64,000 nt of DNA from a virus. Location of the stretch: IMG/VR virus record IMGVR_UViG_3300031231_000003, positions 60,422-124,421 of that record; one strand, given 5' to 3'. Position numbers and translations under genes: made by a program. The notes under the pieces are model-generated. The model was not told where the DNA came from. It made no database searches and saw only the letters and a list, made by a program, of their open reading frames with translations. Positions 1,170 through 51,249 of the stretch are shown here, piece after piece (position 1 is the stretch's first letter; each line of letters starts with the position of its first letter).

Positions 1170-3049
1170 TGACACAATCTTTACCATCGAACGAAGCATG
1201 TACCATTGACGTCAAAGAGGTTGAAAGATTCACAGCAAAGTTCTTTTATCAACACTTTGTTAAAGATGAATGCACGAATGACTCGGGAGAGTCAATTGAC
1301 GTTGACATAAAAAACGTCTCTGGTACAGATGGATCAAACGTTCCTTTGAAAAAGGTTCCTCGATACATTGAACTAAAGTTCATTCCTGTCGCAGTTTCTA
1401 GTGAGAATGTTGACAATCAAGTGATCAAACGAGATCAGGCTTCTCAATTAATCAGCGATCATTTTGATTCGATAGTGACTGAGGATCAATTTTCGTCGAA
1501 TTCGTTCATAAGCATCAATTTTCACGACGGATCGATGGATGACAAGATTTATGAAGTTGTCAGTGGTTCCCTTCAACAATTCATGTTGAATACTGAGAAG
1601 AATTCCAACGTTAGTAATAATAAGCTTTCAAAGCAATTCAATTCATTGTTATCAGATGATGTCGATGCTGATTTTTTATCATCAAAGTTTTCATCATTGA
1701 CTCGATCATCGGGCGCGTCATTTCATTCACTTTCTGAAGGAACCGATAGGATCAAGACCGCGGAAGCGATCGATGCGATCAGTTCTGGTCGAGGTGACAA
1801 GGTTGCAATCATTGAAAGACCTTCTCGAGGAACGAACGTTAGCGTGCAACTGAATGCTAAGATCATCAATGACGTGTTAAAAACACAAATTGACGATCCC
1901 ACTTCACCCTATTCAAGCGACTTGCAAGACCTTTTGAATTCGACACAAAGCACGCAAAGAACTGCAAAGCAACGAAATCAAATACCGTCGGACGAGGACT
2001 ACATGACAATGATTCCATTCATTGACCTCGACGTTCAAAATTCTTCAACAAAGCATGATGAATCTTCAAGACGCGTCGTTGGTTACGTCATTGATAAATT
2101 TGAGATCGATCAAAACCAGAACACGATTGAAAAGGAAAGGTTGATCATCGAAAATCCATTCGCGACACGGATCATCGATTCACGCGTAAAGTACGGTTCG
2201 ACGTACAGGTACCAGATCAGGACGATCGTCCTATTCATTCTTCCCGCCGTCGATGCCGACACGGGCGAACTTGCAATGGTGAAAGCATTGATCAGTTCAA
2301 AACCATCAAGGCCTGAGTACGTTGAGTGTACGGAGAATCAGGCTCCACCCGTACCAAACGATGTCAACTTCATTTGGGATTACGAGACAGAAAAATTGAT
2401 GGTCACTTGGAATTTACCCACGAACCCTCAAAGGGATATCAAACAATTTCAGGTGTTCAAAAGAACGTCGCTTGAGTCATCGTACGACCTTGTGAAGCAA
2501 TTCAACTTCAACGATAGCGACTCGCCCATCGAACAAAACGAAAATCCCGATCCTTCCGTGCTTGAAGTGACAAATTCACCTCGAACGTTCTGGATTGATG
2601 AAAAATTCAAGAAAAATAGCAAGTACATCTACTCGGTGTGTTCGATAGATGCTCATGGCCTCTCAAGCGGTTACTCGGCCCAATTCGAGGTCGGATTTGA
2701 TATCTTTAAGAACAAACTAACGAAATCACTCGTCAGTCACTCAGGTGCCCCGAAACCCTATCCGAACATGTACGTAGAGAACCAATTGTTCGTTGATTCA
2801 ATCAGGACGTCACGCGGCTCGAGAATGAAGCTCTACTTCAATCCCGAGTACTACTCGCTCGTCAATAATCAGAAAAAGGTCATCAAGACGCTTTCAACGA
2901 AGCAAGACGGGGGGAGATACTTGTTGCAAGTACTGAACCTCGATAATCAGAAGGTTGAAAATTTAACGATCACGATCGATGATCAAACGAAGCAATCGAA
3001 AACGAACACAAAATCAACGAAAGTTCTAACAAAGAATCGAACGAAGTGA
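1169..3049 (+). CDS. Putative structural protein with fibronectin-III-like segments
   Basis: 626 aa; Fn3-like patterns 'DSRVKYGSTYRYQIRT', 'LMVTWNLP...FQVFKR', 'KYIYSVCSIDAHGLSSGYS'. Confidence 0.5.
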   Translation: MTQSLPSNEACTIDVKEVERFTAKFFYQHFVKDECTNDSGESIDVDIKNVSGTDGSNVPLKKVPRYIELKFIPVAVSSENVDNQVIKRDQASQLISDHFDSIVTEDQFSSNSFISINFHDGSMDDKIYEVVSGSLQQFMLNTEKNSNVSNNKLSKQFNSLLSDDVDADFLSSKFSSLTRSSGASFHSLSEGTDRIKTAEAIDAISSGRGDKVAIIERPSRGTNVSVQLNAKIINDVLKTQIDDPTSPYSSDLQDLLNSTQSTQRTAKQRNQIPSDEDYMTMIPFIDLDVQNSSTKHDESSRRVVGYVIDKFEIDQNQNTIEKERLIIENPFATRIIDSRVKYGSTYRYQIRTIVLFILPAVDADTGELAMVKALISSKPSRPEYVECTENQAPPVPNDVNFIWDYETEKLMVTWNLPTNPQRDIKQFQVFKRTSLESSYDLVKQFNFNDSDSPIEQNENPDPSVLEVTNSPRTFWIDEKFKKNSKYIYSVCSIDAHGLSSGYSAQFEVGFDIFKNKLTKSLVSHSGAPKPYPNMYVENQLFVDSIRTSRGSRMKLYFNPEYYSLVNNQKKVIKTLSTKQDGGRYLLQVLNLDNQKVENLTITIDDQTKQSKTNTKSTKVLTKNRTK

Positions 3050-3288
3050 ACTCAGTACCCGACGATCAATTTCTACCGGGAGATTCAATCATCGTGTTCA
3101 AGGGTTCGTATGACATCGTCGCAAGCGATTGGCCATTCGTTGAATCGTTCGAGGATGATTCGTTCGGAATGATCTTGGGAGCGAGAAGTAACATGTTGTC
3201 GGAACAGGATTTCATCGTCCTTGTGAACCAGAAATTGCTGTACGTTCAAGGATATCGGATGGTGAGATCTAATGAACATCAATCTTGA
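3046..3288 (+). CDS. Small xLxPGD-family protein (SH3/KOW-like)
   Basis: 'QFLPGDSIIV...FGMILG'; GTGA overlap with the upstream stop. Confidence 0.6.
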   Translation: MNSVPDDQFLPGDSIIVFKGSYDIVASDWPFVESFEDDSFGMILGARSNMLSEQDFIVLVNQKLLYVQGYRMVRSNEHQS

Positions 3289-3304
3289 TTCGATTTAGAA
3301 TTGA

Positions 3305-4309
3305 TTGATGTACTTGGGTGTAGAAAAAATCGTAAAGAAGGATTCTTGGAATAGGACATCAACGAAGCACGTTCATAAATTTCAATGTGATGAATGCGGT
3401 AAATCGTACGACTTGTACAGAAATCGAAAAAGAAGGTTGCATTTTTGTTCTAAGTCATGTAAAAATGCATCAAAATTGCTTCAAAGGTTGATCACTGATG
3501 TTTGCATTGAACGTTATGGTGGAAGAGGTAATGCGTCCATTGAATTGAAATTGAAGAACCAGACGACGTGTCTTAAAATTTACGGTGCATCACATCCTTG
3601 GAAAAATGACGATGTTCATGAAAAATGCATGGTGACGACAGAAAACTTGCATGGTTCGAGAGGATACTTTGGAACTAAAAATTACAAGAAAGCGTTGAAA
3701 GAAAACTGGAATGTTGATCACCCCATGCATTCAGGCGAGATCAAAGAAAAACATCGTAATACTTGTCTTGCAAATTTGGGAGTCGAATACCCCTTGCAAT
3801 CATCGATTTCGATGAAAAAAATGAACGAAACCTGTAATGACAAATTCGGCGTCAAATGGGGATTTCAAATTGAATCTTGTATTCGTAATTCTCATACGAA
3901 TGAAGCCCATAAAAAACGACATGAAACGTTAAAAAAGAATGGTTCATACACTAAATCAAGATGGGAAGATCGATTTCATGAGTTTCTTTGTTCACGATTT
4001 TCAATTGTTGAACGTCAGGTGAGCATGAATCAACGATGGGCGATTGATTTCTATGTTGAACAATTAGATTCTTACGTTCAATTCGATGGTGTTTATTGGC
4101 ACGGCCTTGATCGTGACGAGAATGAGATAAAAAACAGCACGAACAAGCGTGATAAAACGATCTTCAAGAAGTTCTTAACGGATAAAACTCAAAATGAATG
4201 GTTCAAAGAACAGAATTTGAAGTTAGTTAGAATAACCGACAAAGAGTTCATGTCATGTTGGAAGACACAGAATTTTTCCGGTATTGATTTGAAATTATCA
4301 GGAGAATAA
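3305..4309 (+). CDS. Putative homing endonuclease (Zn finger, helical repeats, Vsr/DUF559-like nuclease)
   Basis: CDECG/FCSKSC; 'TCLKIYG', 'TCLANLGVEYP', 'TCNDKFGV' repeats; 'IDFY...YVQFDGVYWH...LVRI'. Confidence 0.75.
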   Translation: MMYLGVEKIVKKDSWNRTSTKHVHKFQCDECGKSYDLYRNRKRRLHFCSKSCKNASKLLQRLITDVCIERYGGRGNASIELKLKNQTTCLKIYGASHPWKNDDVHEKCMVTTENLHGSRGYFGTKNYKKALKENWNVDHPMHSGEIKEKHRNTCLANLGVEYPLQSSISMKKMNETCNDKFGVKWGFQIESCIRNSHTNEAHKKRHETLKKNGSYTKSRWEDRFHEFLCSRFSIVERQVSMNQRWAIDFYVEQLDSYVQFDGVYWHGLDRDENEIKNSTNKRDKTIFKKFLTDKTQNEWFKEQNLKLVRITDKEFMSCWKTQNFSGIDLKLSGE

Positions 4310-4310
4310 T

Positions 4311-5605: not shown

Positions 5606-6694
5606 ATGCCAAGGTATTTACCCGTAACGAATCAATGTGAAGTTTGTCATAATCCCTTTACAGTAGCGTACCGTTTCCGTGGTACGAAAACTTGTAACAA
5701 GGAATGCTTCAAGAAATTGATGTCTTCGAAAAAGAGGACTGAACGTATCAAGAAACAATGCTTGAACGATAAATGCGGGAAGATCTTTGATCTAAAGATC
5801 ACCTACGAGAACATTCAAAAGTACTGCAGTCAAATCTGTTTCTACGATCACAAGTACGGACGAGAATCAGCAATCGTCACATTGATCTGTAAATCATGCG
5901 GAAATGATTTTGATCGTGTGTTCAGCAAACGTCGACACAGATGTTGTTCAAAAAAATGTTTTAGTGTTCAACAAAGTCTGGCAATGATGGGTAAAAATAA
6001 TCCAATGTTTGGTAAAGGACCAATGTTGGGTCGTGTTGCATGGAACAACGGTAAAACAACCGAAACAGACGACAGATTAAAAAATCTAGGACGTGAAGTT
6101 TCACGATCGTTGCAAAGAGGATTTGAATCCGGAAAATTGACTCATGTGGGCGAGAACAATCCGAACTTTGGGCGGACCCGAGAAACACGTTCAATCGAGA
6201 ACCTCGAAAACTACAGCAAGGCAGCATCACAACGCGTGATCGATGGAGTCTCTTGCAACAACAAGAATTTCATGCAAGGAAATTTCTTCAGCAAGAAACA
6301 GAACGAAAGTTTCCATTATCGTTCATCGTACGAACTTCGATTGATGCTTTGCTATGAAGTTGATGAAGATATAATTTCGTACGAACATGAACCGTTCGTG
6401 ATCAAGTACGACGAAGGCAAACGTTACATACCCGATGTCTTAATATTGAAGAACTCATGTGAAAAAGCTATGATCGTTGAAGTCAAACCCGAAATGTTCT
6501 TGCAGAATTTAGATGTAGTTGAAAAAGCAAACGCGGCTCGCGATTATTGTGACAAAAATGACATGACGTACGAATTCATCACATTGAATGACATCGTACG
6601 TTACGAGAAAACGTTATCAATAGATTCTGAACGACACAAAAATTTACATGAACAGAATTCAACCTTAAACGGGGGTGTGAAGTATGCGTCATGA
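5606..6694 (+). CDS. Putative homing endonuclease: Zn-ribbon repeats, NUMOD-like motifs, TnsA-like PD-(D/E)xK domain
   Basis: Three CxxC..C..C units; 'GKNNPMFG', 'GENNPNFG'; 'YRSSYELR..YEHEPF.IKY..YIPD..IVEVKP'. Confidence 0.75.
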   Translation: MPRYLPVTNQCEVCHNPFTVAYRFRGTKTCNKECFKKLMSSKKRTERIKKQCLNDKCGKIFDLKITYENIQKYCSQICFYDHKYGRESAIVTLICKSCGNDFDRVFSKRRHRCCSKKCFSVQQSLAMMGKNNPMFGKGPMLGRVAWNNGKTTETDDRLKNLGREVSRSLQRGFESGKLTHVGENNPNFGRTRETRSIENLENYSKAASQRVIDGVSCNNKNFMQGNFFSKKQNESFHYRSSYELRLMLCYEVDEDIISYEHEPFVIKYDEGKRYIPDVLILKNSCEKAMIVEVKPEMFLQNLDVVEKANAARDYCDKNDMTYEFITLNDIVRYEKTLSIDSERHKNLHEQNSTLNGGVKYAS

Positions 6695-7040
6695 AATCCT
6701 GGTCGGAGCTAGAACATATCAAATGTTCCTGTTATCGTCTAAGGAATTCAATGAACGAGTAAAAATACTGACTGGTCAGGATCTGTGTTCAAAACTTGGA
6801 TTGACCGATCATTACAATCAAGAAATTTACGTTTGTAATGATATTCACCCAGAACTAATGAGAGAGATCATAGTTCATGAAATCGTTCATGTCATGTTAG
6901 AAGATGCAGGTCTGGCTTCGTTGCAAAATCAGAACATTGAATTGAACGAGATCGTTACATCGATCATTTCACCTCGTTTAACGCAAGTTCTGTCACAGAA
7001 CAAAAAGATCTTCGATCTGTTGTTTAGTGGAACTCGTTGA
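6684..7040 (+). CDS. Small HExxH zinc metallopeptidase-like protein
   Basis: 'LGLTD..NQEIY...EIIVHEIVHVML...NE'. Confidence 0.65.
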   Translation: MRHEILVGARTYQMFLLSSKEFNERVKILTGQDLCSKLGLTDHYNQEIYVCNDIHPELMREIIVHEIVHVMLEDAGLASLQNQNIELNEIVTSIISPRLTQVLSQNKKIFDLLFSGTR

Positions 7041-7329
7041 TATCGACATTGACGACTCGTTGTTCTTTGAACCTCCAAAGGATGAAAATTTAATCATGTT
7101 CAAAGATTCATTCAATGAACTTTACGATCGAAAAGCTGAACTCACCCAAAGGGGAAATGTTGTCTCAATCAGTTTTGGCCAATCGCCCCGCCGATCGGTC
7201 GAACACAACGCTCTGTACTGGTATGGATTTTCCGTGTTGGATATGATCAACCATTTGTACATTACCTTACCAGAACTCATCATCACAAGATCACCGGGAC
7301 TTAGATGTGCGAATTCATTCAAAGATTGA
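7027..7329 (+). CDS. Hypothetical protein
   Basis: 100-aa ORF overlapping the upstream stop. Confidence 0.45.
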   Translation: MELVDIDIDDSLFFEPPKDENLIMFKDSFNELYDRKAELTQRGNVVSISFGQSPRRSVEHNALYWYGFSVLDMINHLYITLPELIITRSPGLRCANSFKD

Positions 7330-7660
7330 AGGCTTGATTGCATCGAAATTCGCGTCCAAAAAGTAACAAATTGTTGGAATTGTACTTGAAATGCCCGGCG
7401 GCCATCGATCCATACCACCTCTGATCGTTCTGTCAACGCTTGACGGATTCACGATGCACGCAGCGAACGTTGATCGGTGTTCGGTTTTTACGTTTGAATT
7501 ACCCAATTTCATGTGACCGATCACAAGAAACGTTTTACAAATTTTTGCATGACCGACAACCTGTCGCGTTGACGAATAAAGCCATGAACCTCCGCCTTTT
7601 TAGTGATTCGAGGCATGACGATCGTGCCAGGTGGGTGAAAATTGCTCAAGTGATCAAGAT

Positions 7661-11250: not shown

Positions 11251-11288
11251 AAGGGATCAGGACGAAAGTTCTGGTCCTTTGTGATTTT
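11251..11288. terminator. Hairpin terminator between convergent genes
   Basis: AGGGATCAGGAC-GAAA-GTTCTGGTCCTT stem with GNRA loop and T-rich tail. Confidence 0.7.
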
Positions 11289-11856: not shown

Positions 11857-11899
11857 GATTAATTGTACATTCATGAGTTACGACGTATCATCATGAAAG

Positions 11900-12636: not shown

Positions 12637-12657
12637 TTGTGATATCATCGTTAAACT

Positions 12658-13455: not shown

Positions 13456-13680
13456 ATGTCCCGAAGCGTCAAGATGAAAGATCTTCGGCCAGGCATTGAT
13501 GTTTTGACATGGTCGTATCAAAGCACCGGTCTTGTGATTGGAAACATTCGTACCGTTCCAACGACACAAAGAAAGCTTCCGCAAAGGAAGGTAATTTACT
13601 TGGATTTGAACGGAATTCACGAATTCAGCGGGCAAGACGATTATACCGTCTCTGTGAATGATGATGATAATGAAACTTGA
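13456..13680 (+). CDS. Small xLxPG-family protein
   Basis: 'MKDLRPGIDVL...TGLVIGN'. Confidence 0.6.
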   Translation: MSRSVKMKDLRPGIDVLTWSYQSTGLVIGNIRTVPTTQRKLPQRKVIYLDLNGIHEFSGQDDYTVSVNDDDNET

Positions 13681-14071
13681 ACATTCGCCACGTTTTGTAA
13701 TTGCTCCCGATATCGTGGCGGGCAATGTGTTCATAGGGAGCGAGATTCCTACGAATCCTCCAATTCCCGATGGAATCATCATTAGCGCGATTAAGAACGA
13801 TCAGATTGAAGGTTTGACATTCGGGAAATTCACGATCAAAAAAGTCATTAACTTAAGACCTGGAATCGATGTTCTGGATGAACATGATCCCTTTAAAGGT
13901 CTCATTATTGCGAACGTTGAGTGTGATAAACAAGAACATGACAGAGCGCCGACGTTCGCGGGAGACTGGTACGGCTTCAGCGACAGAAAGATCTTGATCA
14001 TTAACAATTCGGGAGTTCGTTGGTTGTTCGCGTACAATGATTCACTTTTCAGGATCAGAACGTGGGGATAA
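13658..14071 (+). CDS. xLxPG-family protein with N-terminal extension
   Basis: C-half 'INLRPGIDVL...KGLIIAN' is a tandem paralog of 13456..13680. Confidence 0.55.
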   Translation: MMMIMKLEHSPRFVIAPDIVAGNVFIGSEIPTNPPIPDGIIISAIKNDQIEGLTFGKFTIKKVINLRPGIDVLDEHDPFKGLIIANVECDKQEHDRAPTFAGDWYGFSDRKILIINNSGVRWLFAYNDSLFRIRTWG

Positions 14072-14724: not shown

Positions 14725-14726
14725 GC

Positions 14727-20563: not shown

Positions 20564-20845
20564 ATGAATCAGTACGTGGGGTTACAACAAGATCTGTATT
20601 TAGAGGAATCTAAAATGGAAAAAAATGCGTTGAAACGAAAACTTCGAACGATTTTTGAAACTTCATTTTTTAAAAATGATGATCCCGCCTGCAAAGAAAT
20701 GCTTGACATTGCTTTTGTAAACAATGATCAATTTAACATTACGAGGGAAATTGATTCATGGGTTTTGAACGCTGGTCGTGCACATTTATTGATTGCCAAT
20801 AAAGATCTCAATCAAGTTCGTAAACTTGTAGCTAAACTTCAGTAA
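20564..20845 (+). CDS. Hypothetical protein
   Basis: AT-rich ORF; GAGG before internal ATG 20615. Confidence 0.45.
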   Translation: MNQYVGLQQDLYLEESKMEKNALKRKLRTIFETSFFKNDDPACKEMLDIAFVNNDQFNITREIDSWVLNAGRAHLLIANKDLNQVRKLVAKLQ

Positions 20846-21102
20846 TGATCTACAGGCCAGGACAACAAGTAAAACTTGATCCAGCTTATTTTCAAGTATT
20901 AGTCAATTCGCCAATTGGTTCTAGTGATGTTGGGTTGATTATTTGTCAGCTAGATTCTCTAGATAGGAATGATAACGTTGAATACTTGGTTCTTTGGAAT
21001 GGAATCAATTATTGTAAATACACGAATGAAATTGTTCTTGTTGAAGAAACGATAGTTGAACGTGTTTTCAAGCGTTTATTGACGTTCATGAGTCATTCAT
21101 GA
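20845..21102 (+). CDS. Small SH3-like protein (PG-family variant)
   Basis: 'YRPGQQVKL..VGLII..YLVLW..IVERVFKRLL'. Confidence 0.55.
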   Translation: MIYRPGQQVKLDPAYFQVLVNSPIGSSDVGLIICQLDSLDRNDNVEYLVLWNGINYCKYTNEIVLVEETIVERVFKRLLTFMSHS

Positions 21103-28637: not shown

Positions 28638-28877
28638 ATGAAATTCGTTCATGCTCAAGAGGTGAAGTTAAAAGTTGGGGTAGGTGCAAAAACAGCTAAT
28701 TCACCCACTGGAAAAGGAATCATACTTGATAATGTTGATGGATTAAATCTCGTTCTTTGGGTTGATGACGGGATTCAAGATTATCGCATGGATGGTGAAT
28801 TATTGTTGTTCGTTGAAAACGATGGATCGTTGATCGAACGAGTGTTCCGTCGTTTGATCAATCTATTGAACTCATGA
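28638..28877 (+). CDS. Small SH3-like protein, paralog of 20845..21102
   Basis: 'LKVGV..KGIIL..LVLW..LIERVFRRLI'. Confidence 0.55.
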   Translation: MKFVHAQEVKLKVGVGAKTANSPTGKGIILDNVDGLNLVLWVDDGIQDYRMDGELLLFVENDGSLIERVFRRLINLLNS

Positions 28878-30855: not shown

Positions 30856-31503
30856 ATGCTCAGATTTGCGACGATTGCGGACGTTCACATCCGCTCGTTA
30901 ACACGTCATGATGAGATTCGAGAAGTGTTCAACGCTTTCGTTAAAGACGTGAAGGAACACAACATCGATCACATTTTCATTGGTGGCGACATCGGTCACA
31001 GTAAAACAGCACAATTTTCGGCTGAGTACGTTGATCTCATGGTTGAGCTGATCAACTTGCTTGGCGATACCGCACCGACCCACATGATCTTGGGAAATCA
31101 CGACCTGAACGAGAGAAACAAGATCAGACAGGATGTGATCACACCCGTTTTAAACGCGGTCAAGCACCCAAACGTGCATCTTTACAAGACTAGCGGTGTT
31201 TACAGTATCGCAGAAGGTTGCAATTTGTGCGTCTTTAGCATCTTTGACGAGGAGAATTGGAAAAATGTGGAACCCGTAGAAGGTGACATCAACATCGCTT
31301 GTTATCACGGGGGCGTTTCGGGAGCAAGGACTGAAACTGATTGGGAACTCACGGGAGGTCTGGAATTAGATCATTTTGCTGAATATGATGCAACTTTCCT
31401 CGGTGACATCCACAAATTTCAATGGCTGGATCATCGTGATTTTGAAATTGAAATTGACGAGGATGAGTTAAAAGATTATCCCGGAGCAATTGTGCTTCCA
31501 TGA
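30856..31503 (+). CDS. SbcD/Mre11 (gp47-like) nuclease, N-terminal fragment
   Basis: 'IADVH','GGDI','LGNHD','CYHG','LGDIH'; stops before the conserved YPGS motif. Confidence 0.88.
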   Translation: MLRFATIADVHIRSLTRHDEIREVFNAFVKDVKEHNIDHIFIGGDIGHSKTAQFSAEYVDLMVELINLLGDTAPTHMILGNHDLNERNKIRQDVITPVLNAVKHPNVHLYKTSGVYSIAEGCNLCVFSIFDEENWKNVEPVEGDINIACYHGGVSGARTETDWELTGGLELDHFAEYDATFLGDIHKFQWLDHRDFEIEIDEDELKDYPGAIVLP

Positions 31504-31718
31504 AATTTAGTGATCTCAGACCGGGAGATATGTACATCACGTCTGGTTCTACCGTTTATCCTCAGCATGAATCAGCAACCGTTGTAGCCGTAACTGAGAA
31601 TCATATAACGTGGTTGATTACGGAAAATAGATTGACAAAGATCTATCGTTTTAAGAATTTCAATGATCAACCTTTCGATGAAAAGGGAATCACTTGGTTG
31701 AGGGTGAAAAATGTCTAA
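31500..31718 (+). CDS. Small xLxPGD-family protein inside the split sbcD
   Basis: 'MKFSDLRPGDMYI...ATVVAV'; overlaps both neighbours. Confidence 0.65.
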   Translation: MKFSDLRPGDMYITSGSTVYPQHESATVVAVTENHITWLITENRLTKIYRFKNFNDQPFDEKGITWLRVKNV

Positions 31719-34284
31719 GAAGATTCGAATTCGTATAAACCGACCGGCGATAGGGTATCCCGGATCGATGCTTCAAAATACCTACTCAGAAGATCTGAAG
31801 CATTTTTGGCTGAAATGGGAGTTCAAATCGAGCAACGACTTCACAGTCGTTCCTGTTGAACTTCCGAATCCAAAGCCATTTTTGACAATCGATTGGAACG
31901 GTTCCGTCAATAAAACGGTCGACCAGTTGAAGAACTTCAAGGCTGGTTCAAGGGTTCGTATCAAGTCTGATGCAAAGATCCCACTTAAGTACTCAACGAA
32001 GCTCGTTTCAACGATCAAGAACGAGATGGGAGCATCGGAGGTCATCTTCAAGGAAGAACAGGCAACCGACATCTCTCGAATCAACATGGGTTCCGTTCAG
32101 TTGCTTCGTACGGATCTGAGGAATTCGGACGTATTGTTTCAGCTTTTAAAGGAACATTACAAGTCATCCGAAATGCATGAGGATGAATGGGTGAAGATCT
32201 ACGATCTTCTTCGTAAGTACGTCTCGATTCTCACGAGCGAGGATGTGATGAGGAACGTCAAATGGTCATTGAGAAGACTTCGCTTCAACAACATGTATTC
32301 CTATGGCGAAGATAACACGATCAATTTCGATGCATTGTCGGGCCTCGTAGGTATATTCGGGCCAAACAGAAGCGGCAAGTCTTCAATTCTCGGAACCCTA
32401 ATGTACGGGTTGTTCAATGCGACCGATAGAGGTCCAATCAAGAACATGTTGCTGTGCAACACTCGTAAGCAATCATGCTCATCAAAGATCGTGATCAAGC
32501 TCGGGGGTCGTGATTACCTCGTTGAGCGTTCAACGAACAAGAAGTCGAACAAGCAGGGTGACATCTCCGCCGCGACGAACCTCAGGATTTGGGAACTCAT
32601 CGATGGAAAACCTGTTGAAAGCACGGGGGAGCAACGTTCAGACACCGAGAAAACGCTGAGAAAGCTCATCGGAACGTCGGATGATTTTCATTTGATGTCG
32701 ATATCGACGCAGCGAGATGATAATTCAATCCTCGAACACGGGTCCACGAAAAGACGACAGATCATTTCAAGGTTCCTTGACATTGACGTCCTCCAGCAGA
32801 TCCATGAACTTGCACGTGATGATGTTCGTGAACAAAAAGGTCTCATCAAGAACCTGAACGAGGATTTGAATGAATCAATAAACGATAGACGTAACGTGTC
32901 ATCCAATCTCGATCAACAGATTGAACTCAACGTTTCTAATCTCGAAAGTTCACGTGAAAGGTTGTTCGATCTAAAGACTCAGCTCGCAGCTTTCAAGGGA
33001 TTCAAGCATGTTTCGATCGAGGAGCTCGAATCACACCGTGAATCGATCGACGAGTTGAACGGAAAATTATCGAAGGTTGTTTCAAGCATTGAAAAAGCGG
33101 GAAGGGACTTACAAGAAACGGATGAAAAAATAGAACGTGTTTCGACGGTTCTTCAGGATTACGATCTTGTGACGATGAAGCAACAGCTCGATTCATTCAA
33201 GAAGCTGCGTTCAAGCGTCAATTCGATGCTTCAAGCGTACACGAACGAGAACAACTCGTTCGAACGTAGCAAGAAGACGATCAAGATCCTGCAAGACGTT
33301 CCTTGTGGCGATTCGTTTCCAACGTGTAAGTTCATCAAGGATGCTCATGACCTGAAACCAACGCTGGACGATCAACGTGATCGAGTAAATTCTTTGAAAC
33401 GATCGTACGATGAAGCGAATCAATCGCTCGGCGGTATCGATGAAAAAAAGATGGTCGACAACGTTTCGAAGGTTGAATCGTTGAAGGAAAAACTGGGACA
33501 ATTGAAGTTGAACAAGGCTCAGCTCGAAACCCAATTGACAAGGCTCAATCACAACAGGAACGAGATTCAGCGAACTTTGGACGTTGCGATCAATGAATTC
33601 GAGGATCTCGAATCAAGGACCGACAAAAAGAAGAACGATGAACTGACCTCACTTAAATCATTGATCTTTTCTGCCGAAGCCGGAATATCCGTCTTGGAAA
33701 AAGCGAATATCTCTTTGGCAACACAAAAAGGTAAGATTGAATCCGAGATCGAACGTTTGTTGAAGGATCAAAAGAGACGAATCGATATCCTTCAAAGGAT
33801 GAAGTACCACGAGGTGATCGAATCCAGCTTTTCAAAGAATGGAATTCAGGATGCGATCCTCTCATCAATGCTTCCTGCGATCAATGAAGAGGTTGCAAAG
33901 ATCCTCAATGGAATCGTGAACTTCACCGTTGAGCTCGAGAAGCTACCGAATGATGATCAAATCGACATCTACATAAACTATGGTGATGGTGACAAGAGGG
34001 TTCTCGAACTCGGAAGCGGCATGGAAAAGTTCATCAGTTCAATCGTTCTACGAGTTGCATTGAACAACATCTCCACCTTACCGAAGAGCGATGTGTTCTT
34101 CATCGACGAAGGATTCGGGTCGTTGGATGCGAGCAGCGTGGAGGAGTGTTCAACATTGCTTCAATCTCTGAAGAAGTACTTCAAGACGATCATTGTCATC
34201 ACACACGTTGACGTGATGAAGGACATCGTCGATTCCACGATTGAGATCACACGAAACGGAAAGGACTCACATGTCTCGTGTTGA
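31711..34284 (+). CDS. SbcD C-terminal fragment fused to SbcC/Rad50 (gp46-like) ATPase
   Basis: 'IGYPGSMLQ..YSE'; Walker A 'GPNRSGKSS'; Zn hook 'CGDSFPTC'; 'GSGME'; Walker B 'FFIDEGFGSLD'; 'VITH'. Confidence 0.92.
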   Translation: MSKKIRIRINRPAIGYPGSMLQNTYSEDLKHFWLKWEFKSSNDFTVVPVELPNPKPFLTIDWNGSVNKTVDQLKNFKAGSRVRIKSDAKIPLKYSTKLVSTIKNEMGASEVIFKEEQATDISRINMGSVQLLRTDLRNSDVLFQLLKEHYKSSEMHEDEWVKIYDLLRKYVSILTSEDVMRNVKWSLRRLRFNNMYSYGEDNTINFDALSGLVGIFGPNRSGKSSILGTLMYGLFNATDRGPIKNMLLCNTRKQSCSSKIVIKLGGRDYLVERSTNKKSNKQGDISAATNLRIWELIDGKPVESTGEQRSDTEKTLRKLIGTSDDFHLMSISTQRDDNSILEHGSTKRRQIISRFLDIDVLQQIHELARDDVREQKGLIKNLNEDLNESINDRRNVSSNLDQQIELNVSNLESSRERLFDLKTQLAAFKGFKHVSIEELESHRESIDELNGKLSKVVSSIEKAGRDLQETDEKIERVSTVLQDYDLVTMKQQLDSFKKLRSSVNSMLQAYTNENNSFERSKKTIKILQDVPCGDSFPTCKFIKDAHDLKPTLDDQRDRVNSLKRSYDEANQSLGGIDEKKMVDNVSKVESLKEKLGQLKLNKAQLETQLTRLNHNRNEIQRTLDVAINEFEDLESRTDKKKNDELTSLKSLIFSAEAGISVLEKANISLATQKGKIESEIERLLKDQKRRIDILQRMKYHEVIESSFSKNGIQDAILSSMLPAINEEVAKILNGIVNFTVELEKLPNDDQIDIYINYGDGDKRVLELGSGMEKFISSIVLRVALNNISTLPKSDVFFIDEGFGSLDASSVEECSTLLQSLKKYFKTIIVITHVDVMKDIVDSTIEITRNGKDSHVSC

Positions 34285-42854: not shown

Positions 42855-42856
42855 TT

Positions 42857-43966: not shown

Positions 43967-43973
43967 TAAGACA

Positions 43974-44372: not shown

Positions 44373-44429
44373 AACTCACAATGATTGATGTGCATCGTTA
44401 AATTTTCGTTTCGTACATAATTACTTGTT

Positions 44430-45032: not shown

Positions 45033-45138
45033 TCGAAGTGAGATTCACGCTATCTGATGTTTCGACGTTGACGTCGAATGAATTCTCGTTCACCTGATTG
45101 GGGGAAATTAGTACACTCTCAAAGAACGTTCGTGTGCA

Positions 45139-45468
45139 TTACGGAATGCGTGAGTTGCATTCCTTCGCCTTTCGTCGCTTGATGACGATTGGTGATTCCT
45201 TCACGTCAATGACGTGTGAGCTGATTCTGAACGAGGTTCGATTCGTTGAAGCTTGAAAACATTCGTGCTTCGCATCACATGTGCAACGAATGTACGATCC
45301 CTGATAAGAAACACGATCGAATCCATCGCCATCAGTCGACATTCCAATTCGAGACGTCCATTCGAGCTTTCCACCTAATCCGCAATGAGGATTGAACGAT
45401 TCGGAACGAGCTAGTATGTCGTACAAATCGAACGTTCGTGCTGTAGTATTACGCGTTTTGAATGCCAT
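45139..45468 (-). CDS. Hypothetical protein
   Basis: 109 aa, TACAAT upstream. Confidence 0.45.
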   Translation of the reverse strand: MAFKTRNTTARTFDLYDILARSESFNPHCGLGGKLEWTSRIGMSTDGDGFDRVSYQGSYIRCTCDAKHECFQASTNRTSFRISSHVIDVKESPIVIKRRKAKECNSRIP

Positions 45469-45495
45469 GAAAAGCTCATTGTAACATGAAATCTT

Positions 45496-45711
45496 TCAAA
45501 GAACATGAAAGAACGTTGCATCTTGAAACGCGTAAATACTAACCGTTAGTACCCTGTTTTTCTTGTACACCGTCACGTATTCATTGACATGAGCAATGAC
45601 TGTGAACATATCATGAAGCGCGAACATCTCGTAATCACTGATGGAGGATGACCATATCTGAATTTTTCTCAGAACGTAGTACATCTCGCCAAGCAAGAGC
45701 TTGTTCAACAA
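45496..45711 (-). CDS. Small SH3-like protein (divergent family member)
   Basis: 'KLLLGEMYYV...FTVIA'. Confidence 0.4.
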   Translation of the reverse strand: MLNKLLLGEMYYVLRKIQIWSSSISDYEMFALHDMFTVIAHVNEYVTVYKKNRVLTVSIYAFQDATFFHVL

Positions 45712-45717
45712 AGATTG

Positions 45718-46227
45718 TCACACGTGCAGGATCGTGAACGGCGGACGAACTGCCGCGTTGTTGATACATGAAACTTCAAGTGCCTGTTTAATTCTTGCCT
45801 CAGCATTCTTGATGCTTCCGTTCGAATGCATCGCACCCATTGCAAGATCTGCACCGGATCCCATTGCATCGAAACCTTCTCGTGCTTCAGCAACTTGGTA
45901 ATCCCCGTGAATTCCGAACAACTTTCCAGCGTGACCGACGAGAATGTCGGGCTGGAGATTATCTTCCTTCAAGCAGGAACGTACGGAATCTACGAATTCG
46001 TTCACCATGTACGTTGAAAGGTTACCTCCCTTGAACTTCGGAATCACCAATCGGTGTTGGATCAACTGACCCATCCTGAAGCTACCGCAGAATCCAAAAA
46101 TGAAGCCATCACGAACGAACACCTTCTTGTCATTTCGTGAGCGTTGTAGCATGTTGGAACTCGTTCCAGCACTGTCGCCACCAATGAAAACTTTACCCTT
46201 GCTTTCGAGCCCAATGATACAAGTCAT
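45718..46227 (-). CDS. HslV/proteasome-beta-like N-terminal-Thr peptidase
   Basis: 'MTCIIG...IGGDS','KKVF','GFCGS','AMGSG..LAMGAM'. Confidence 0.8.
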   Translation of the reverse strand: MTCIIGLESKGKVFIGGDSAGTSSNMLQRSRNDKKVFVRDGFIFGFCGSFRMGQLIQHRLVIPKFKGGNLSTYMVNEFVDSVRSCLKEDNLQPDILVGHAGKLFGIHGDYQVAEAREGFDAMGSGADLAMGAMHSNGSIKNAEARIKQALEVSCINNAAVRPPFTILHV

Positions 46228-46242
46228 GCTAGTATGATACCA

Positions 46243-46479
46243 CTATTTCTTTTGACGTATCACGAACGTTGCCCCGTCAATTTTATCCCGTTCGTTGTAG
46301 CAAATTTTTCTCGTACAGGTGGGATGGTTGTTCATGAAGTTGATGTGAAGATCGTAACCAGTACCGAGCTTACCGGTTGCATTCGTAATTACGACACTTA
46401 AAACCAACGATTGGTTACCGTGAACGACCCTTGAGACTAGCAAATCTCCGGGATAAAGGTGTGAATAAAGCATTGTCAA
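46243..46479 (-). CDS. Small xLxPGD-family protein
   Basis: 'MLYSHLYPGDLLV...SLVLSV'. Confidence 0.6.
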   Translation of the reverse strand: MTMLYSHLYPGDLLVSRVVHGNQSLVLSVVITNATGKLGTGYDLHINFMNNHPTCTRKICYNERDKIDGATFVIRQKK

Positions 46480-48164
46480 ATATAAGAAAAGAAAGAGTTT
46501 TCGTACCCGTTAATTCGTGTGAAACCATCTGCTGCGGCGAGCTCGTTCTCATTTAATCCAAGTTCTTTGTTGTTTTTGAACGTTTGACGGTCGTAACGTT
46601 TACACATATCTGTCCACCAGTAACGCATCACAGTTTGACGTTCGTATCTCCAACCTGATAATTTGTATCCCCTGCCATCACCGATCCGGTTATCGACGTA
46701 TGTTACCAATCCAGGTTTCATGGATGTTTTAGCGATTTTCAACGCTTCTTTTGTTAATTTACCCAACCAACCATGAACCTTGATGTTACATTTACATGCC
46801 GCTCTTGCGACCTCGAATCGGGATTCATTCGATCTTGATGCATTACGAGGTATTCTCAATGTCATGACGGCAATAAGTTCATCATTGAACTTCAATCCAA
46901 TACACTTTGATGATTGAACGTGTCCCTCTAGGTGGTTATTTACCAGGAATGATTTCGATTGTGCATTATCGATCTCAACAAGTTCGCATTTTCTTGCATG
47001 TATCGTTCTGTCAAACACATTCAATCGTTGTTTGATCATTGATTCAACTATTTTTCGTTTTTGTAACCATTCATCTTCAAATATCGAAAAGAGACGAATT
47101 CCAACTTGTTTAGCAAGCAACGACTTCTTAACGTGGTAACGAGGATCTTTCAGCACGGCGGTTGAATGCCAATAAAGTCCATTGTATTCAATACCAAATT
47201 TCATTGACGGAACGTAGATATCGACCTCTTGAGGGAACAAGATAGTTCTATCTCCGGATACAACATCACCCACGTTAAGCGATTTGACGAAATCAAGAAC
47301 TTCTAGTTGACCAATTGATCCTTTGGGATGACATGTATTACAAATCGGTCGTCCCCTGAATTGCATCAACGTTCTTTGTGCGGTGATACCGCAAGTCTTA
47401 CACTTGATATCAAGTTGATTGTACTTGTTTCGATATAAGTTCGGGTCGGTCAAAAGATCGAACTTTCCTTTTGAGCTGTCTTCGAACACATTGATCAATT
47501 GATCAGGCTTGAAACGTTTTGCGGACGAATTCATGTTTGTTTTGACTGTGTGAGATATGTTTCTACCCAACAAACGTACACTTTCATTCGTATCCTTTGT
47601 TTGCCCCTTGATCCAAGCAATTTTTTCACCCGAAGCGAACTTTCGTTTCTTTGTTTCTGATGATTTCTTCAAACTTTCATGAGTATCTTTCGTTTGACCT
47701 TTTTGCCAGTACTCATAAGTTCCCGCTTCGTGTCCAATTGTCAACGTTTTTCCAATACGTTCAGACATTTCTGCAACACGAATGTCAGTTTCTTTCGTCA
47801 AACCATCATTCCATACCTTGTATTTACCAGAACGATAACCATCAGTACGTTTTTGAGCGAATTCTGCTTGTCGATCCGGATCGTTGTAGATTGAATCAAT
47901 CACGGCGTTATGACCCCGGACGAATTTCACGGGATAACCAACCTTCCAACCGTACCATTTAACGGGCTCACTGCATTTTCCACATTTACAAACGGGGGTG
48001 ATTCCGCAGTGATAGATTTTGTCGAACAATGCTTGATGGTTGGTACAGGAATGTGTGGACGACAAATGCTCAAGAAATTTCTTCTCTTGAGCAAAGTCTT
48101 TATCACAGTTCGGACATGAAATTCGTTTGAATTTCTTTTTTTCAGGTATTACTTCCTCACTCAT
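46476..48164 (-). CDS. Hef-like endonuclease: Zn fingers, WxKGxTK repeats, Vsr-like nuclease, GNAT/Mom-like C-domain
   Basis: 'CKCGKC','WNDGLTKET','WQKGQTKDT','EVDIYVP..FGIEYNGLYWHS','ARKC..NH','YVDNRIGDG.GY'. Confidence 0.7.
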   Translation of the reverse strand: MSEEVIPEKKKFKRISCPNCDKDFAQEKKFLEHLSSTHSCTNHQALFDKIYHCGITPVCKCGKCSEPVKWYGWKVGYPVKFVRGHNAVIDSIYNDPDRQAEFAQKRTDGYRSGKYKVWNDGLTKETDIRVAEMSERIGKTLTIGHEAGTYEYWQKGQTKDTHESLKKSSETKKRKFASGEKIAWIKGQTKDTNESVRLLGRNISHTVKTNMNSSAKRFKPDQLINVFEDSSKGKFDLLTDPNLYRNKYNQLDIKCKTCGITAQRTLMQFRGRPICNTCHPKGSIGQLEVLDFVKSLNVGDVVSGDRTILFPQEVDIYVPSMKFGIEYNGLYWHSTAVLKDPRYHVKKSLLAKQVGIRLFSIFEDEWLQKRKIVESMIKQRLNVFDRTIHARKCELVEIDNAQSKSFLVNNHLEGHVQSSKCIGLKFNDELIAVMTLRIPRNASRSNESRFEVARAACKCNIKVHGWLGKLTKEALKIAKTSMKPGLVTYVDNRIGDGRGYKLSGWRYERQTVMRYWWTDMCKRYDRQTFKNNKELGLNENELAAADGFTRINGYENSFFSYI

Positions 48165-48236
48165 GAAGAAATAATAATTATTAATTACGTAGCGTACAAC
48201 TCTAGAGTTCCAATAACCATAAGTGGTTGAAATTGT

Positions 48237-48728
48237 TCAGAATTGGAGGATCCAATTGTCGGCACGGAGGGTACAAGAAATTTCCGTGGGTTCATGAGTA
48301 TCGTAACTAAGTTCTCCAAAGTTGACCTCAGTCGCCCAGACGCCTTTTCCGTCCCATAAACTGACCACTGTACCTACCGGGTCCAACAATTTAAGTTGGA
48401 CATCCCTCTTGTAAAAGTCAGCATACCCCGCTCGTCCCGAAACTGATTCGTAACAGAGTCTCAACCATTCCATCGTTTGCTGTGCCGCGGAAGGAGCAAT
48501 CGGATCGTGAAGCGTGATTTGAACCGGTCCGAACGTGGTCTTACCAGCAAGGTAACGGTGAGCGTTGATGAATGGTATTGGAACCTCTTCCGTGGTCACG
48601 GTAGGTTGCTGCGCGGTCTTAAGCAAGAATGCATCGATGCCTTCGATCATGAACACCCACCTATTCTTTTGCTTGGGCTGAAATTGATTCGGTAACATTG
48701 ACGTAACATCTAGGGTTTCTGCGGCCAT
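48237..48728 (-). CDS. Tail tube protein (T4 gp19-like)
   Basis: 'PKQKNRW','IPFIN..RYLAGK','ITLHDPIAPSAAQQTMEW','FYKRD..LLDPVG.VV..W','FGELSY'. Confidence 0.9.
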   Translation of the reverse strand: MAAETLDVTSMLPNQFQPKQKNRWVFMIEGIDAFLLKTAQQPTVTTEEVPIPFINAHRYLAGKTTFGPVQITLHDPIAPSAAQQTMEWLRLCYESVSGRAGYADFYKRDVQLKLLDPVGTVVSLWDGKGVWATEVNFGELSYDTHEPTEISCTLRADNWILQF

Positions 48729-48819
48729 ATTGGAATTCTCCTACGAATAGTTAGGTAACAATTATTGTTTACGACCATTTACAAAGTTTTTTTGGTAATT
48801 ACCTATTCATGATAACCGT

Positions 48820-50601
48820 ATGATCCAATTGAATGAAGTTACGTGGTCTCGAATTTGTCCAACTTGTGATCAACCAACAACACATAAAAATCGTGCAAAA
48901 TGTCTTTGTGCGGAAAAACTAAAAACGACATGTTCAAGTTGTTCTGCAAAGCAACGAGGAAAGAAAAGATCGGCACATGATTTATGTCCAATTTGTAAGA
49001 ACGAATTTAGAGTCCTTGATGTTCAAGAACACTCTGAACTACATTCAACGACGCCTCAATTACTTTGGTTGTTAAAACATTCATGTGAAATTCCTAAGTG
49101 TCGATGTGGTTGTGGTGAATCAACGAACTGGGCAAATTGGAAAAAAGGCTTCAGTGAATTCTTGAACGGTCATAACGGAAGTATTTACACGTCCTACGAC
49201 CTGCAAAAAGCTAAAGAAATTAGTGATAAAAGAAGATCAAAATTGATCGGGAAAGTTGGTTGGGCCAAGAACCAAACGATGGAAAATAACACAATAATTA
49301 AAAATCGTGCTCAAGCATCCGCAGCCGGAATACGCAAAACATTTGCTGAAGGTCGAATCGCCTGGTCAAAAGGATTGACGAAAGAAACCAATCCTGCCGT
49401 AGCCAGCATGGCTAAAAATTTAAAGGAGGGGTTCGCGAATGGAACGTACAAGCCGTGGGCAAAAGGATTGACGAAGGAAACAAATCCAACCCTTGCAACC
49501 ATGGCAATGAATGTTTCTTTTGCATTAAAACAAAAGGAATTGCATGAACGGCTAACAATCATTAAAAGATTGACTAAAAGCGAAATTTTAGATCGAATCA
49601 AAACCAACAGCAGCATCGAATTGCTTGATGATCTTTCACCGTATTTGTCGTTGACATCGACAAACATAAACGTTAAATGCAAACTTTGCAATGAAACGTT
49701 TAAATCATCAATCAATAATCTTGTAAGTGGAAACCGGTGTTACATTTGTTCTCCCGCTTGGATCTCATCTGGACAATCTGAAATCATCAATTTCGTCAAA
49801 AGTTTGAATTTTTCACCTCTGGTAAATGACAGATCAGCGATTAGTCCTCTTGAGCTTGACATATATGTACCAGAACGTCGATTCGCAATCGAATACAATG
49901 GCCTGTATTGGCATTCCGAGCTGAATAAAAGTGCAATTTACCATGACAACAAGACGAACAAATGCCTTACGAGTGATGTTCGTTTATTTCATGTTTTTCA
50001 AGATGAATGGGGAGAAAAATCAGACATCGTTAAAAGCATGATCAAGCATCGTTTGGGAATTTTTGATCGTGTAATTGGGGCTCGTAAATGCACGATACAT
50101 GTTTTAAACAACAGGCAACGAATAGAATTTTTTGAAAAAAATCACATTGATGATGATTCATCCGCAGGAATGTGTTTGGGTTTAATTCACAACGATGAAT
50201 TAGTGGCCGCATTATCATTACGAAAAGCGTTTCATAAAAAATACGAAGACGCTCTCGAGGTTGCTAGATTTTGCACTAAAACGTTCACAGCCGTGCCAGG
50301 TGCTTTGAGTCGTTTAACTTCACATGCTAAAATTTATGCAAGTTCGATGGGATACAAGCGATTGATCACTTACGTTGATTCAAGATTAGGAACCGGTGAA
50401 GCTTATAAAAAAGCTGGATTTTCCCTTGTGTCAAACACAAAACCTCGATTCTGGTGGACTGACATGAAGTACCGTTTCAATCGTTTCAAGTTCCGTGCCG
50501 ATCCAAAAAACAACATGACGGAGGCTCAGGTTGCTGGGGAAGCGGGTGTAGTGAAAATTTGGGGGTGCAAGAATTACGTGTTCGAGCTCATCATTGAATG
50601 A
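48820..50601 (+). CDS. Hef-like endonuclease, paralog of 46476..48164
   Basis: 'CRCGCG', 'WSKGLTKET', 'WAKGLTKET', 'ELDIYVP..FAIEYNGLYWHS','ARKC','EVARFC','YVDSRLGTG.AY..AGF'. Confidence 0.7.
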   Translation: MIQLNEVTWSRICPTCDQPTTHKNRAKCLCAEKLKTTCSSCSAKQRGKKRSAHDLCPICKNEFRVLDVQEHSELHSTTPQLLWLLKHSCEIPKCRCGCGESTNWANWKKGFSEFLNGHNGSIYTSYDLQKAKEISDKRRSKLIGKVGWAKNQTMENNTIIKNRAQASAAGIRKTFAEGRIAWSKGLTKETNPAVASMAKNLKEGFANGTYKPWAKGLTKETNPTLATMAMNVSFALKQKELHERLTIIKRLTKSEILDRIKTNSSIELLDDLSPYLSLTSTNINVKCKLCNETFKSSINNLVSGNRCYICSPAWISSGQSEIINFVKSLNFSPLVNDRSAISPLELDIYVPERRFAIEYNGLYWHSELNKSAIYHDNKTNKCLTSDVRLFHVFQDEWGEKSDIVKSMIKHRLGIFDRVIGARKCTIHVLNNRQRIEFFEKNHIDDDSSAGMCLGLIHNDELVAALSLRKAFHKKYEDALEVARFCTKTFTAVPGALSRLTSHAKIYASSMGYKRLITYVDSRLGTGEAYKKAGFSLVSNTKPRFWWTDMKYRFNRFKFRADPKNNMTEAQVAGEAGVVKIWGCKNYVFELIIE

Positions 50602-50657
50602 TCAAACATTCCTGACTTCGTTCCGCATGTTGTGTTAGGATACATGTTAAACCTCAC

Positions 50658-50843
50658 ATGATGTTCAAAGATCTCCAGCCAGGAAATTTGTTGGTTTATG
50701 GCAATGTTCTACTTGTTCTTTCGATAGAATCTAAAAAGCACTCGTGTGGAATGACAATCTCGTACCTGGGAAACTATGGCGTGTTTCGTCAAGTGTACCA
50801 TCAAGAATCTTGCATAGATCAATCAATACGAGTCGTTAAATGA
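50658..50843 (+). CDS. Small xLxPG-family protein
   Basis: 'MFKDLQPGNLLV...LLVLSI'. Confidence 0.6.
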   Translation: MMFKDLQPGNLLVYGNVLLVLSIESKKHSCGMTISYLGNYGVFRQVYHQESCIDQSIRVVK

Positions 50844-51079
50844 CTTACGGTGAACTCGTTCCGGGTGACTTGCTCATCAATGACGCTCTTGGTACCATCA
50901 TCGTCATAGCAATTGATACCACAACCGTGTTGTTCGGGAACGATACTTCGGCACATATCAAACTATCGTTCCTTAGTACCTATAAGTCAATGTTCAACGT
51001 TCACATGCCATCGATGCAACATTGCACGAGCTTCGTTCGTTCAACAACTATACAACCCTCGTTGTCAAAAAAGAGGTAG
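50840..51079 (+). CDS. Small xLxPGD-family protein
   Basis: 'MTYGELVPGDLLI...IIVIAI'; ATGA overlap. Confidence 0.6.
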   Translation: MTYGELVPGDLLINDALGTIIVIAIDTTTVLFGNDTSAHIKLSFLSTYKSMFNVHMPSMQHCTSFVRSTTIQPSLSKKR

Positions 51080-51249
51080 TTTTTCAACGAACCGTCCACT
51101 GTTAAGACTGAAATGCTTCTATCGAACGCATTGCACCGCGTCTTTTGGTTTGCAATGACGAGACCTTGCATGTCACGAGCTGAGTGAATTAGAACGTCGC
51201 CTGGCTGAAGATCTTTGATCAATAACTGCAATCGTAGTACCTCGGCCAC
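51001..51249 (-). CDS. Small xLxPGD-family protein (convergent)
   Basis: 'LIKDLQPGDVLI...GLVIAN'; 3' end overlaps the convergent ORF. Confidence 0.5.
   Translation of the reverse strand: MAEVLRLQLLIKDLQPGDVLIHSARDMQGLVIANQKTRCNAFDRSISVLTVDGSLKNYLFFDNEGCIVVERTKLVQCCIDGM

Follow-up and report, generated by a model that had tools for sequence, protein, structure and literature searches.

Domain I of EF-P begins with a turn similar to the sequence motif described in this study, and the tip of its P-G-K-G hairpin carries a modified lysine or arginine. At the level of gene organization, T4-type phages carry free-standing endonuclease genes that stand in intergenic junctions and can split genes, and the relevant sections of one article give as examples mobE in nrdA of Aeh1, mobA in gene 60 and seg43(25) in gene 43 (PMC2988022). 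Here we compare both with a dispersed family of small open reading frames (ORFs), 60-90 amino acids (aa) in most cases, whose products open with an L-x-P-G-D-hydrophobic motif. The family was studied in bases 60,422-124,421 of the single 124,421-bp virus record IMGVR_UViG_3300031231_000003, a stretch of 64,000 nucleotides (nt) that we refer to as the window, and its copies are named by their first coordinate. With slightly better than even confidence, we interpret the copies as lineage-specific paralogues, duplicated and accessory, that encode single-domain, five-stranded SH3-like mini-barrels, and we infer that these probably act as binding modules.

CheckV estimates the record to be 36% complete, so that it represents only part of the genome of a much larger, uncultured phage. 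Its large terminase is ~40% identical to the terminases of Flavobacterium phage immuto and Microcystis phage Mel-JY01, and its portal protein is of the T4 type. In this available 36% of the genome the family has at least 13 copies, 11 in the window and two in the first half of the record (Table 1). An initial annotation of the window had listed 14 such ORFs, all of which are present at their coordinates and 11 of which carry the motif, but the three listed as variants (20845, 28638 and 45496) are not members. The annotation correctly placed copies on both strands (46243 and 51001 on the minus strand, the rest of those in the window on the plus strand) and described starts that overlap the upstream stop codon. 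Such overlaps are ATGA at 12382, 14470, 31500 and 50840, GTGA at 3046 and TTGA at 46243. Non-members also overlap the upstream stop (ATGA at 28638; one common base at 20845).

That the copies are real genes of a lineage-specific orphan family is statistically solid. The whole record was scanned for the pattern [LIVMF].PG[DN][LIVMFYSW] within the first 25 residues of ORFs of at least 40 aa, and 12 of 828 ORFs matched, compared with a mean of 0.28 and a maximum of 2 in 100 dinucleotide-preserving shuffles. Ten of the 12 are family copies, and the other two, g4819 (48 aa) and g32502 (42 aa, overlapping a 342-aa epimerase gene on the opposite strand), look like chance, their number fitting the shuffle expectation. 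This count over the record, where the annotation had covered the window, yielded the two additional copies, record 20428 and record 37946. The typical opening of the 11 window copies is [DE]-L-x-P-G-D followed by two hydrophobic residues, with an extra isoleucine in 13456 and 13658 (L-R-P-G-I-D). Different copies use different codons for L, P, G and D, and their upstream DNA is unrelated, which indicates conservation and selection at the level of the protein. A DNA-level repeat or regulatory cassette as the source of the motif is excluded by these observations and by the random level of k-mer sharing in the flanks. Codon usage scores best in the gene's own frame in all 13 copies, although stop codons in the alternative frames make this weak evidence, and 11 copies have gene calls in public data. 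When each copy was left out of the family profile in turn, the omitted copy ranked first among all other ORFs in nine of 13 cases, and the remaining ranks were 2, 2, 4 and 6.

Outside the motif the copies are highly divergent, as first annotated and as the BLASTP, leave-one-out and half-family profile results bear out. Pairwise BLASTP similarity is largely limited to the first 10-15 residues, the conserved part is the first ~15 residues in 11 of the 13 copies, and over anything longer than a short stretch identity has a ceiling of ~35%. The best pair, 13456/13658, is 27% identical over 67 aa (E 3.5e-5); similarity also reaches further in record 37946/50840 (E 2.4e-4), 46243/50658 (3.8e-4) and 50658/51001 (6e-4), and 13456 is linked to 51001 at E 0.002. 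In the alignment, the segment between strands 2 and 3 differs by up to ~30 residues. The isoelectric points (pI) of the copies span 4.2 to 9.9, which fits diverse surfaces rather than one common nucleic-acid ligand.

Structure prediction supports the SH3/KOW-like scaffold that had been proposed from the sequence, in that three models, representing three of the 13 copies (50658, 31500 and 14470), agree on a five-stranded barrel. For 50658 and 31500, the input to AlphaFold2 was the 13-row family alignment. The 50658 model is a five-strand all-beta barrel (strands at residues 11-13, 17-25, 31-38, 41-48 and 58-60 by DSSP) with a predicted local distance difference test score (pLDDT) of 93.5 and a predicted template modelling score (pTM) of 0.75, and 31500 has the same strand order at a pLDDT of 73.2. 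The ESM Atlas single-sequence model of 14470 (pTM 0.74, pLDDT 0.79) is independent of the family alignment, and clusters of EF-P and IF5A N-domains appear among its structural neighbours, with template modelling (TM) scores of 0.49-0.57. The top proteins in Foldseek are EF-P/IF5A N-domains too, none at E 0.001 or better. Neighbours of the models are SH3, Tudor and KOW domains, and the models themselves have the five antiparallel strands of a small closed barrel of ~60 residues. As modelled, the motif provides the barrel's N-terminal cap, its turn and its first strand; it sits within the fold, and residues 1-10 of 50658 form a block with a pLDDT of 95. The hydrophobic strand pattern is retained across copies. 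The predictions thus support an SH3/KOW-like fold class, nearest to EF-P/eIF5A domain I.

Membership in the EF-P or KOW families is not supported by sequence comparison. The EFP_N profile (PF08207) had no match in the record at E up to 10, and as a control it matched in 14 of 14 genomes; in Pfam scans at E up to 1, neither EFP_N nor KOW is among the matches. All 16 ORFs were compared with Pfam and PHROGs, without a match below E 0.04 (PHROGs: none below E 0.05), and the family profile found motif-level matches only, at E 0.2 or worse, among PDB sequences. The nearest clusters in an ESM Atlas feature search are unnamed. The leads from that resource (KilR, YdfZ, DUF7205, DUF4314, R67 DHFR and SH3-C_UBE2O) were discarded, their scores of 0.80-0.85 being in the chance range.

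The family was seen in this phage only among the collections searched. Against 1.84 billion cluster representatives, the family profile had 18 matches at E up to 0.001, of which 11 short ones are the phage's own proteins and the other seven are long proteins. The four long matches that were scanned are repeat proteins (BTB, RTX, NlpC/P60 and DUF7507); P0009 and P0014 aligned only around the motif columns, the best stretch of P0017 covers positions 3-53, and for P0018 no aligned stretch was given. Word-indexed searches returned own proteins only (one of one candidate for 31500; five passing of 851 for the family alignment). A weak profile match at record 31781-32809 is a polysaccharide-synthesis epimerase and hence chance. 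The nearest large relative, G002 (269 kb, including the record G001), has core proteins 29-65% identical to those of this phage, and in both there were no motif ORFs and no profile matches, with a positive control on the phage's own genome recovering 13 of 13 copies. The family profile found nothing in the relatives' records G001-G005, and it found no match in 111 kb of metagenome sequence from nine loci, whose 825-aa anchor protein is at most 59% identical. In 80 sbcD loci (850 kb) there were two ORFs with the motif pattern, both chance-like, and the best profile E was 0.061. One locus, L110 (37% identity on the 825-aa anchor), has at 6641-6874 a lone 77-aa ORF opening M-E-G-T-Q-V-M-K-P-G-D-I-V that the profile does not match. 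Full-text literature searches found no publication describing these proteins. The family is new, but of a familiar kind, the small unannotated phage protein.

Ten clusters at 90% identity contain one to three members and are seen on 4-11 contigs. Part of the region 45400-52000 is present in 13 metatranscriptome runs labelled soil, four of which contain half or more of it, and one 81.8-kb contig from these RNA libraries covers all of it. Across 6.6 kb, the four contigs compared have two letter differences, none within family copies. Since these are contigs only and near-identical, with DNA carry-over possible, they cannot show transcription or selection. Together, the database clusters and the soil RNA contigs look like one phage population met several times.

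With respect to genomic position, G001 is a compact syntenic core, and the window has accessory genes at nearly every core junction. The core neighbours of every copy site in the window abut in G001, as expected for empty sites, but the relatives are distant (37-65% protein identity) and all accessory genes are alike in this respect. The 407-aa and 825-aa genes, 66 bp apart in G001 as measured between tblastn match ends, are 12.5 kb apart in the window, and the island between them contains five copies (12382 to 17661). Copy 3046, together with an endonuclease gene, follows a 626-aa gene. Copy 46243 and the copies at 50658-51249 lie in a 7-kb block whose flanking genes are 92 bp apart in G001 (again by match ends). 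In the first half of the record, one copy adjoins a PD-(D/E)XK nuclease gene and one lies between two glycosyltransferase genes. Endonuclease genes are abundant in the window and include DUF7487, TnsA-like with NUMOD3 and HNH types, as well as two paralogues of 562 and 593 aa.

The most informative site is the junction between sbcD and sbcC (Mre11/Rad50-type). It had been noted that one copy sits inside a split sbcD, and this is confirmed: 31500 fills the sbcD-sbcC junction exactly, overlapping both neighbours. Among 80 related loci, the gene is fused in 73 (an SbcD-SbcC ORF of ~1,047 aa), split at one and the same site in five, and partial in two. The junction is empty in four of the five split loci, and in the fifth, L001, it holds a 289-aa endonuclease gene related to that at 3305-4309 of the window. 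The junction is therefore one slot in four states (unsplit, split and empty, with an endonuclease gene, or with a mini-barrel gene), and it informs how accessory genes enter large phage genomes. In the split forms, the N-terminal half ends with a diverged extra Y-P-G segment, which also opens the C-terminal half; this resembles the duplication of a gene end that an insertion would leave behind. In L048 (~6570-7560), the sbcD-sbcC ORF is unbroken and carries ~985 extra in-frame nucleotides at the junction site, which may represent an intein or an in-frame endonuclease.

We suspect that an ancestral mini-barrel gene multiplied within the phage lineage. Local duplication is suggested by the P-G-I-D shared by 13456 and 13658, by the trio at 50.6-51.3 kb and by the four copies within 2.4 kb. 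In the history that we infer, loops and surfaces would have diverged almost fully, with the fold-defining opening and the strand hydrophobicity kept, and copies would have come to rest exclusively at accessory positions between core genes. The starts that overlap the upstream stop, or lie a few bases past it, suggest translation coupled to the upstream gene, and copies may be expressed by coupling to whichever gene stands upstream. The retained scaffold, the diverged surfaces and the charge spread favour binding modules, and the copies would most likely have different host or phage partners. An anti-defence role, offered as an example in the initial annotation, is weakly supported, a link to defence or counter-defence having been neither sought nor found.

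A different view, also raised by the initial annotation, is that of a minimal selfish or hitch-hiking gene, self-spreading between junctions or carried by homing-endonuclease-driven gene conversion and tolerated behind other genes. All window sites are empty in G001, and 31500 lies exactly in the split sbcD-sbcC junction where L001 has its endonuclease gene; such intergenic sites are used by free-standing endonuclease genes of T4-type phages, according to the sections cited above (PMC2988022). In addition, three of the 11 window copies (3046, 46243 and 50658) directly adjoin endonuclease genes, and 46243 and 50658, the most similar dispersed copies, each stand behind a member of one pair of paralogous endonuclease genes. 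However, every accessory gene of the phage has the same empty-site pattern, which weakens the argument for mobility, and with ~10 endonuclease genes among ~100 genes in the window, adjacency of three in 11 is, by our own estimate, at about the chance level. Outside the window, the two further copies, by a PD-(D/E)XK nuclease and between glycosyltransferases, also speak against this view, as do the two endonuclease genes beside the 163-aa gene in G001, both of which stand without a small ORF. There is no recent pair of copies, the best being 13456/13658. The 80-nt flanks have no common DNA motif or repeat (the most widely shared 7-mer occurs in three of 13, a level that random controls equal). 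Pfam and PHROGs revealed neither a nuclease nor a recombinase domain in the family, and the whole protein is one 60-90-aa barrel. The family profile misses all endonuclease ORFs of the genome, for which reason an origin from an endonuclease domain was also rejected. Old copies, flanks without a common DNA motif and the absent nuclease lend mobility little weight, and we consider the selfish gene unlikely. It is more doubtful still that the copies form a phage-borne repertoire in which barrel surfaces diversified so that each neutralizes or recruits a different host factor, such as a defence protein, and which spread via endonuclease-induced repair. If true, this would define a nuclease-free class of passenger genes specialized for homing sites.

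The unity of the family can be questioned as well. The ORFs could be unrelated or partly related beta-rich proteins whose barrel-starting motif arose by convergence or by descent in small subgroups, and several results weigh against our interpretation on this point. Without the motif columns, the leave-one-out search ranked the omitted copy first in only two of 13 cases, with ranks 2 and 3 for two more, and the other nine ranked 11 to 510 or were unlisted. Between profiles of the two family halves, the alignment is confined to 12 motif columns (E 9e-7), and there is none once these columns are removed (E 0.67). L-x-P-G-D-hydrophobic is a common sequence that proteins of unrelated fold also contain, among them NlpC/P60 repeats and MDR reductases, and the lone M-K-P-G-D-I-V ORF of a distant relative is unmatched by the profile. 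Two of the three models took the family alignment as input and so are not mutually independent, and only two of the five AlphaFold2 models of 50658 are confident. Because similarity after the motif is barely detectable, the case for common descent of all 13 rests on the motif, on similar size and predicted fold, and on their presence together in a single genome. Nonetheless, with 12 motif ORFs where 0.28 were expected and none in the 269-kb relative, convergence would need a genome-specific reason. Sizes and strand patterns are alike, the three predicted folds agree, and the links of 13456 to 51001 and of record 37946 to 50840 connect subgroups, so that we assign separate origins a low probability. 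Alternatively, the N-terminal motif could be a common address or processing signal and the bodies its cargo, for example in capsid targeting for injection. T4 internal proteins carry an N-terminal capsid-targeting sequence that is removed by the prohead protease, and they are found in virions. Confinement of the conservation to the opening in 11 of 13 copies, with the rest free, would fit such a signal, as would a second family of the same build in this phage, in which M-K-I-S-L-K-Q-L-K-x-I-I-K-E-E opens nine otherwise unrelated ORFs. However, in the models the motif lies with high confidence within the fold, a similar turn begins domain I of EF-P, two copies carry the motif internally (13658 at residue 66, record 20428 at residue 21), and no consistent cleavage-type residue follows it; we find an address signal rather improbable. 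That the ORFs are chance open frames in intergenic DNA is hardly credible. They are short, presence in RNA libraries is no proof of transcription, the 3' ends of 50840 and 51001, convergent ORFs on opposite strands, have 79 nt in common, and an antisense 88-aa ORF (17690-17956) scores equally with 17661, so that the coding strand of 17661 rests on the motif and the public gene calls. The excess of motifs over shuffles, the synonymous variation at conserved residues, the tight start and stop junctions with neighbours and the confident predicted folds of 50658 and 14470 all argue for genes.

Few kinds of uncharacterized protein are as frequent in phage genomes as small beta-barrels without annotation, and the fragment studied here gives at least 13 of its ~180 ORFs to one scaffold. 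As a series that keeps only the fold-defining opening, the mini-barrels are a natural set for asking what such proteins bind, and if they are counter-defence binders, new inhibitors could be drawn from a compact set of proteins.

Table 1. Family copies, rejected ORFs and the split sbcD-sbcC gene (window coordinates unless marked as record; ranks are from the leave-one-out profile search)
Feature	Coordinates	Strand	Observations
Family copy, 80 aa	3046..3288	+	Motif F-L-P-G-D-S at residues 9-14; rank 6 (E 0.99), weakest member; GTG start overlaps stop of 626-aa gene; directly 5' of DUF7487 endonuclease gene 3305-4309
Family copy, 84 aa	12382..12636	+	ATGA overlap with 161-aa upstream ORF; rank 2 (E 0.0047); first of four copies in 12.4-14.7 kb cluster
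Family copy, 74 aa (68 aa from second Met, public call)	13456..13680	+	L-R-P-G-I-D; rank 1; tandem partner of 13658 (BLASTP E 3.5e-5)
137-aa ORF, family domain C-terminal (~13832-14071)	13658..14071	+	L-R-P-G-I-D at residue 66; profile stretch 59-125; no match found for N-terminal 58 aa
Family copy, 84 aa	14470..14724	+	ATGA overlap with upstream ORF; rank 1 (E 6.2e-6); own ESM Atlas model
Family copy, 86 aa	17661..17921	+	Begins 4 nt past upstream stop; rank 1 (E 0.019)
Family copy, 72 aa	31500..31718	+	In split sbcD-sbcC junction; ATGA with stop of N-terminal half, 8-nt overlap with start of C-terminal half
Family copy, 78 aa (76 aa from ATG)	46243..46479	-	Rank 1, rank 2 without motif; directly downstream of 562-aa endonuclease-like gene (46476-48164)
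Family copy, 61 aa	50658..50843	+	Motif Q-P-G-N; rank 1 with and without motif; best AlphaFold2 model; downstream of 593-aa paralogous endonuclease-like gene (48820-50601)
Family copy, 79 aa	50840..51079	+	ATGA overlap with 50658; rank 1 with motif, rank 52 without; may be decaying, as the family profile fails to recognize its post-motif part
Family copy, 82 aa	51001..51249	-	Rank 1 with and without motif; in-frame TTG at codon 10 would yield the usual M-x-K-D-L-Q-P-G-D opening
Additional family copy	record 20428-20754	-	Motif at residue 21
Additional family copy	record 37946-38179	-	Found by motif scan and family profile
Non-member, paralogue of 28638	20845..21102	+	C-terminal E-R-V-F-[KR]-R-L
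Non-member, paralogue of 20845	28638..28877	+	C-terminal E-R-V-F-[KR]-R-L
Non-member	45496..45711	-	No motif, no profile match (E 0.59 vs core profile)
N-terminal half of split SbcD-SbcC (Mre11-Rad50-like)	30856..31503	+	Metallophos domain
Rest of split gene: SbcD C-terminal part and SbcC ATPase	31711..34284	+	AAA_23, SMC_N

Among the ORFs that were set aside, 45496 was ruled out by the absent motif and its profile score, and 20845 and 28638 by the lack of a core-profile match (hhalign E 0.19). The latter two form a separate two-copy family of ~80 aa (39% identity, BLASTP E 4.5e-8) with a helix-like C-terminal end; neither has a database match and both are in accessory slots. The second dispersed N-terminal family is defined by the opening M-K-I-[ST]-L-K-Q-L-[KR]-x-I-I-[KN]-E-E, found in nine ORFs of 59-325 aa (window 35634-35900, 38221-39198, 39243-39455, 62012-62446 and 63321-63704; record 1093, 7555, 8179 and 8366). 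By eye, the rest of their sequence is unrelated, and many lie near the terminase and portal genes; five ORFs of the 269-kb G002 have the same opening, which could be a common targeting or assembly peptide. The portal protein (39555-42854) is 1,099 aa long, compared with 826 aa for that of G001. Two separated stretches of it match the Portal_T4 profile, and the sequence between these has endonuclease- or intein-like motifs by eye. The terminase ORF is 937 aa in G001 and 533 aa here.

Within 46476-50601, the 562-aa and 593-aa endonuclease-like paralogues are 35% identical and flank a conserved 163-aa gene in inverted orientation; neither belongs to a Pfam family. They are ancient paralogues. In G001, too, the 163-aa gene stands between the pair, and small ORFs are lacking; there (68056-71094), one is intact and the other has decayed, in the same place, into pieces of 142 aa and 80 aa. 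The ORFs at 29905-30822 and 51215-51964 (305 and 249 aa), neither with a Pfam family, share long similar stretches by eye, including G-S-S-R-x-x-F-x-L-x-S-x-K-V-L-K-...-G-I-A-Q-N-E. An HNH-type endonuclease gene at 11288-11874 on the minus strand, like those at 21765-22466 and 34578-35162, is apparently broken into ORFs of 51 aa and 144 aa.

Compared with described proteins, the family has its closest counterparts in size among uncharacterized small phage barrels modelled in BFVD (52-110 aa), which have the same predicted fold, with TM scores by query of 0.56-0.76. These phage accessory proteins include A0A6J5NFN5, A0A482MSN3 of Escherichia phage PTXU04, gp399 of Bacillus phage G and gp83 of Mycobacterium phage L5, at Foldseek E 0.006 to 0.08, none at 0.001, and they have no sequence relation to the family. 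To our knowledge, none of them belongs to a family with 13 copies per genome. Other SH3-like or Tudor-like neighbours are the TraI translocation-signal domain, the C-terminal Tudor domain of UvrD/PcrA, FeoA and the integron cassette protein VCH_CASS4. EF-P/EfpL domain I and the a/eIF5A N-domain have the KOW-like SH3 barrel fold that is also predicted for the family. However, EF-P has domains II and III in addition whereas the family proteins are single-domain, proteins of the EF-P type are 9-17% identical to the family in structural alignments, and the P-G-K-G loop is present in none of the 13 translations, the nearest being P-G-K-M in 17661. In their genomic setting, the copies resemble free-standing homing endonucleases, which likewise stand at junctions of conserved genes, including split-gene junctions, in the sections of the article cited above. 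Unlike homing endonucleases, the family encodes no nuclease and shows no recent movement and no target-site features, and it is thus passenger-like in such slots rather than endonuclease-like.

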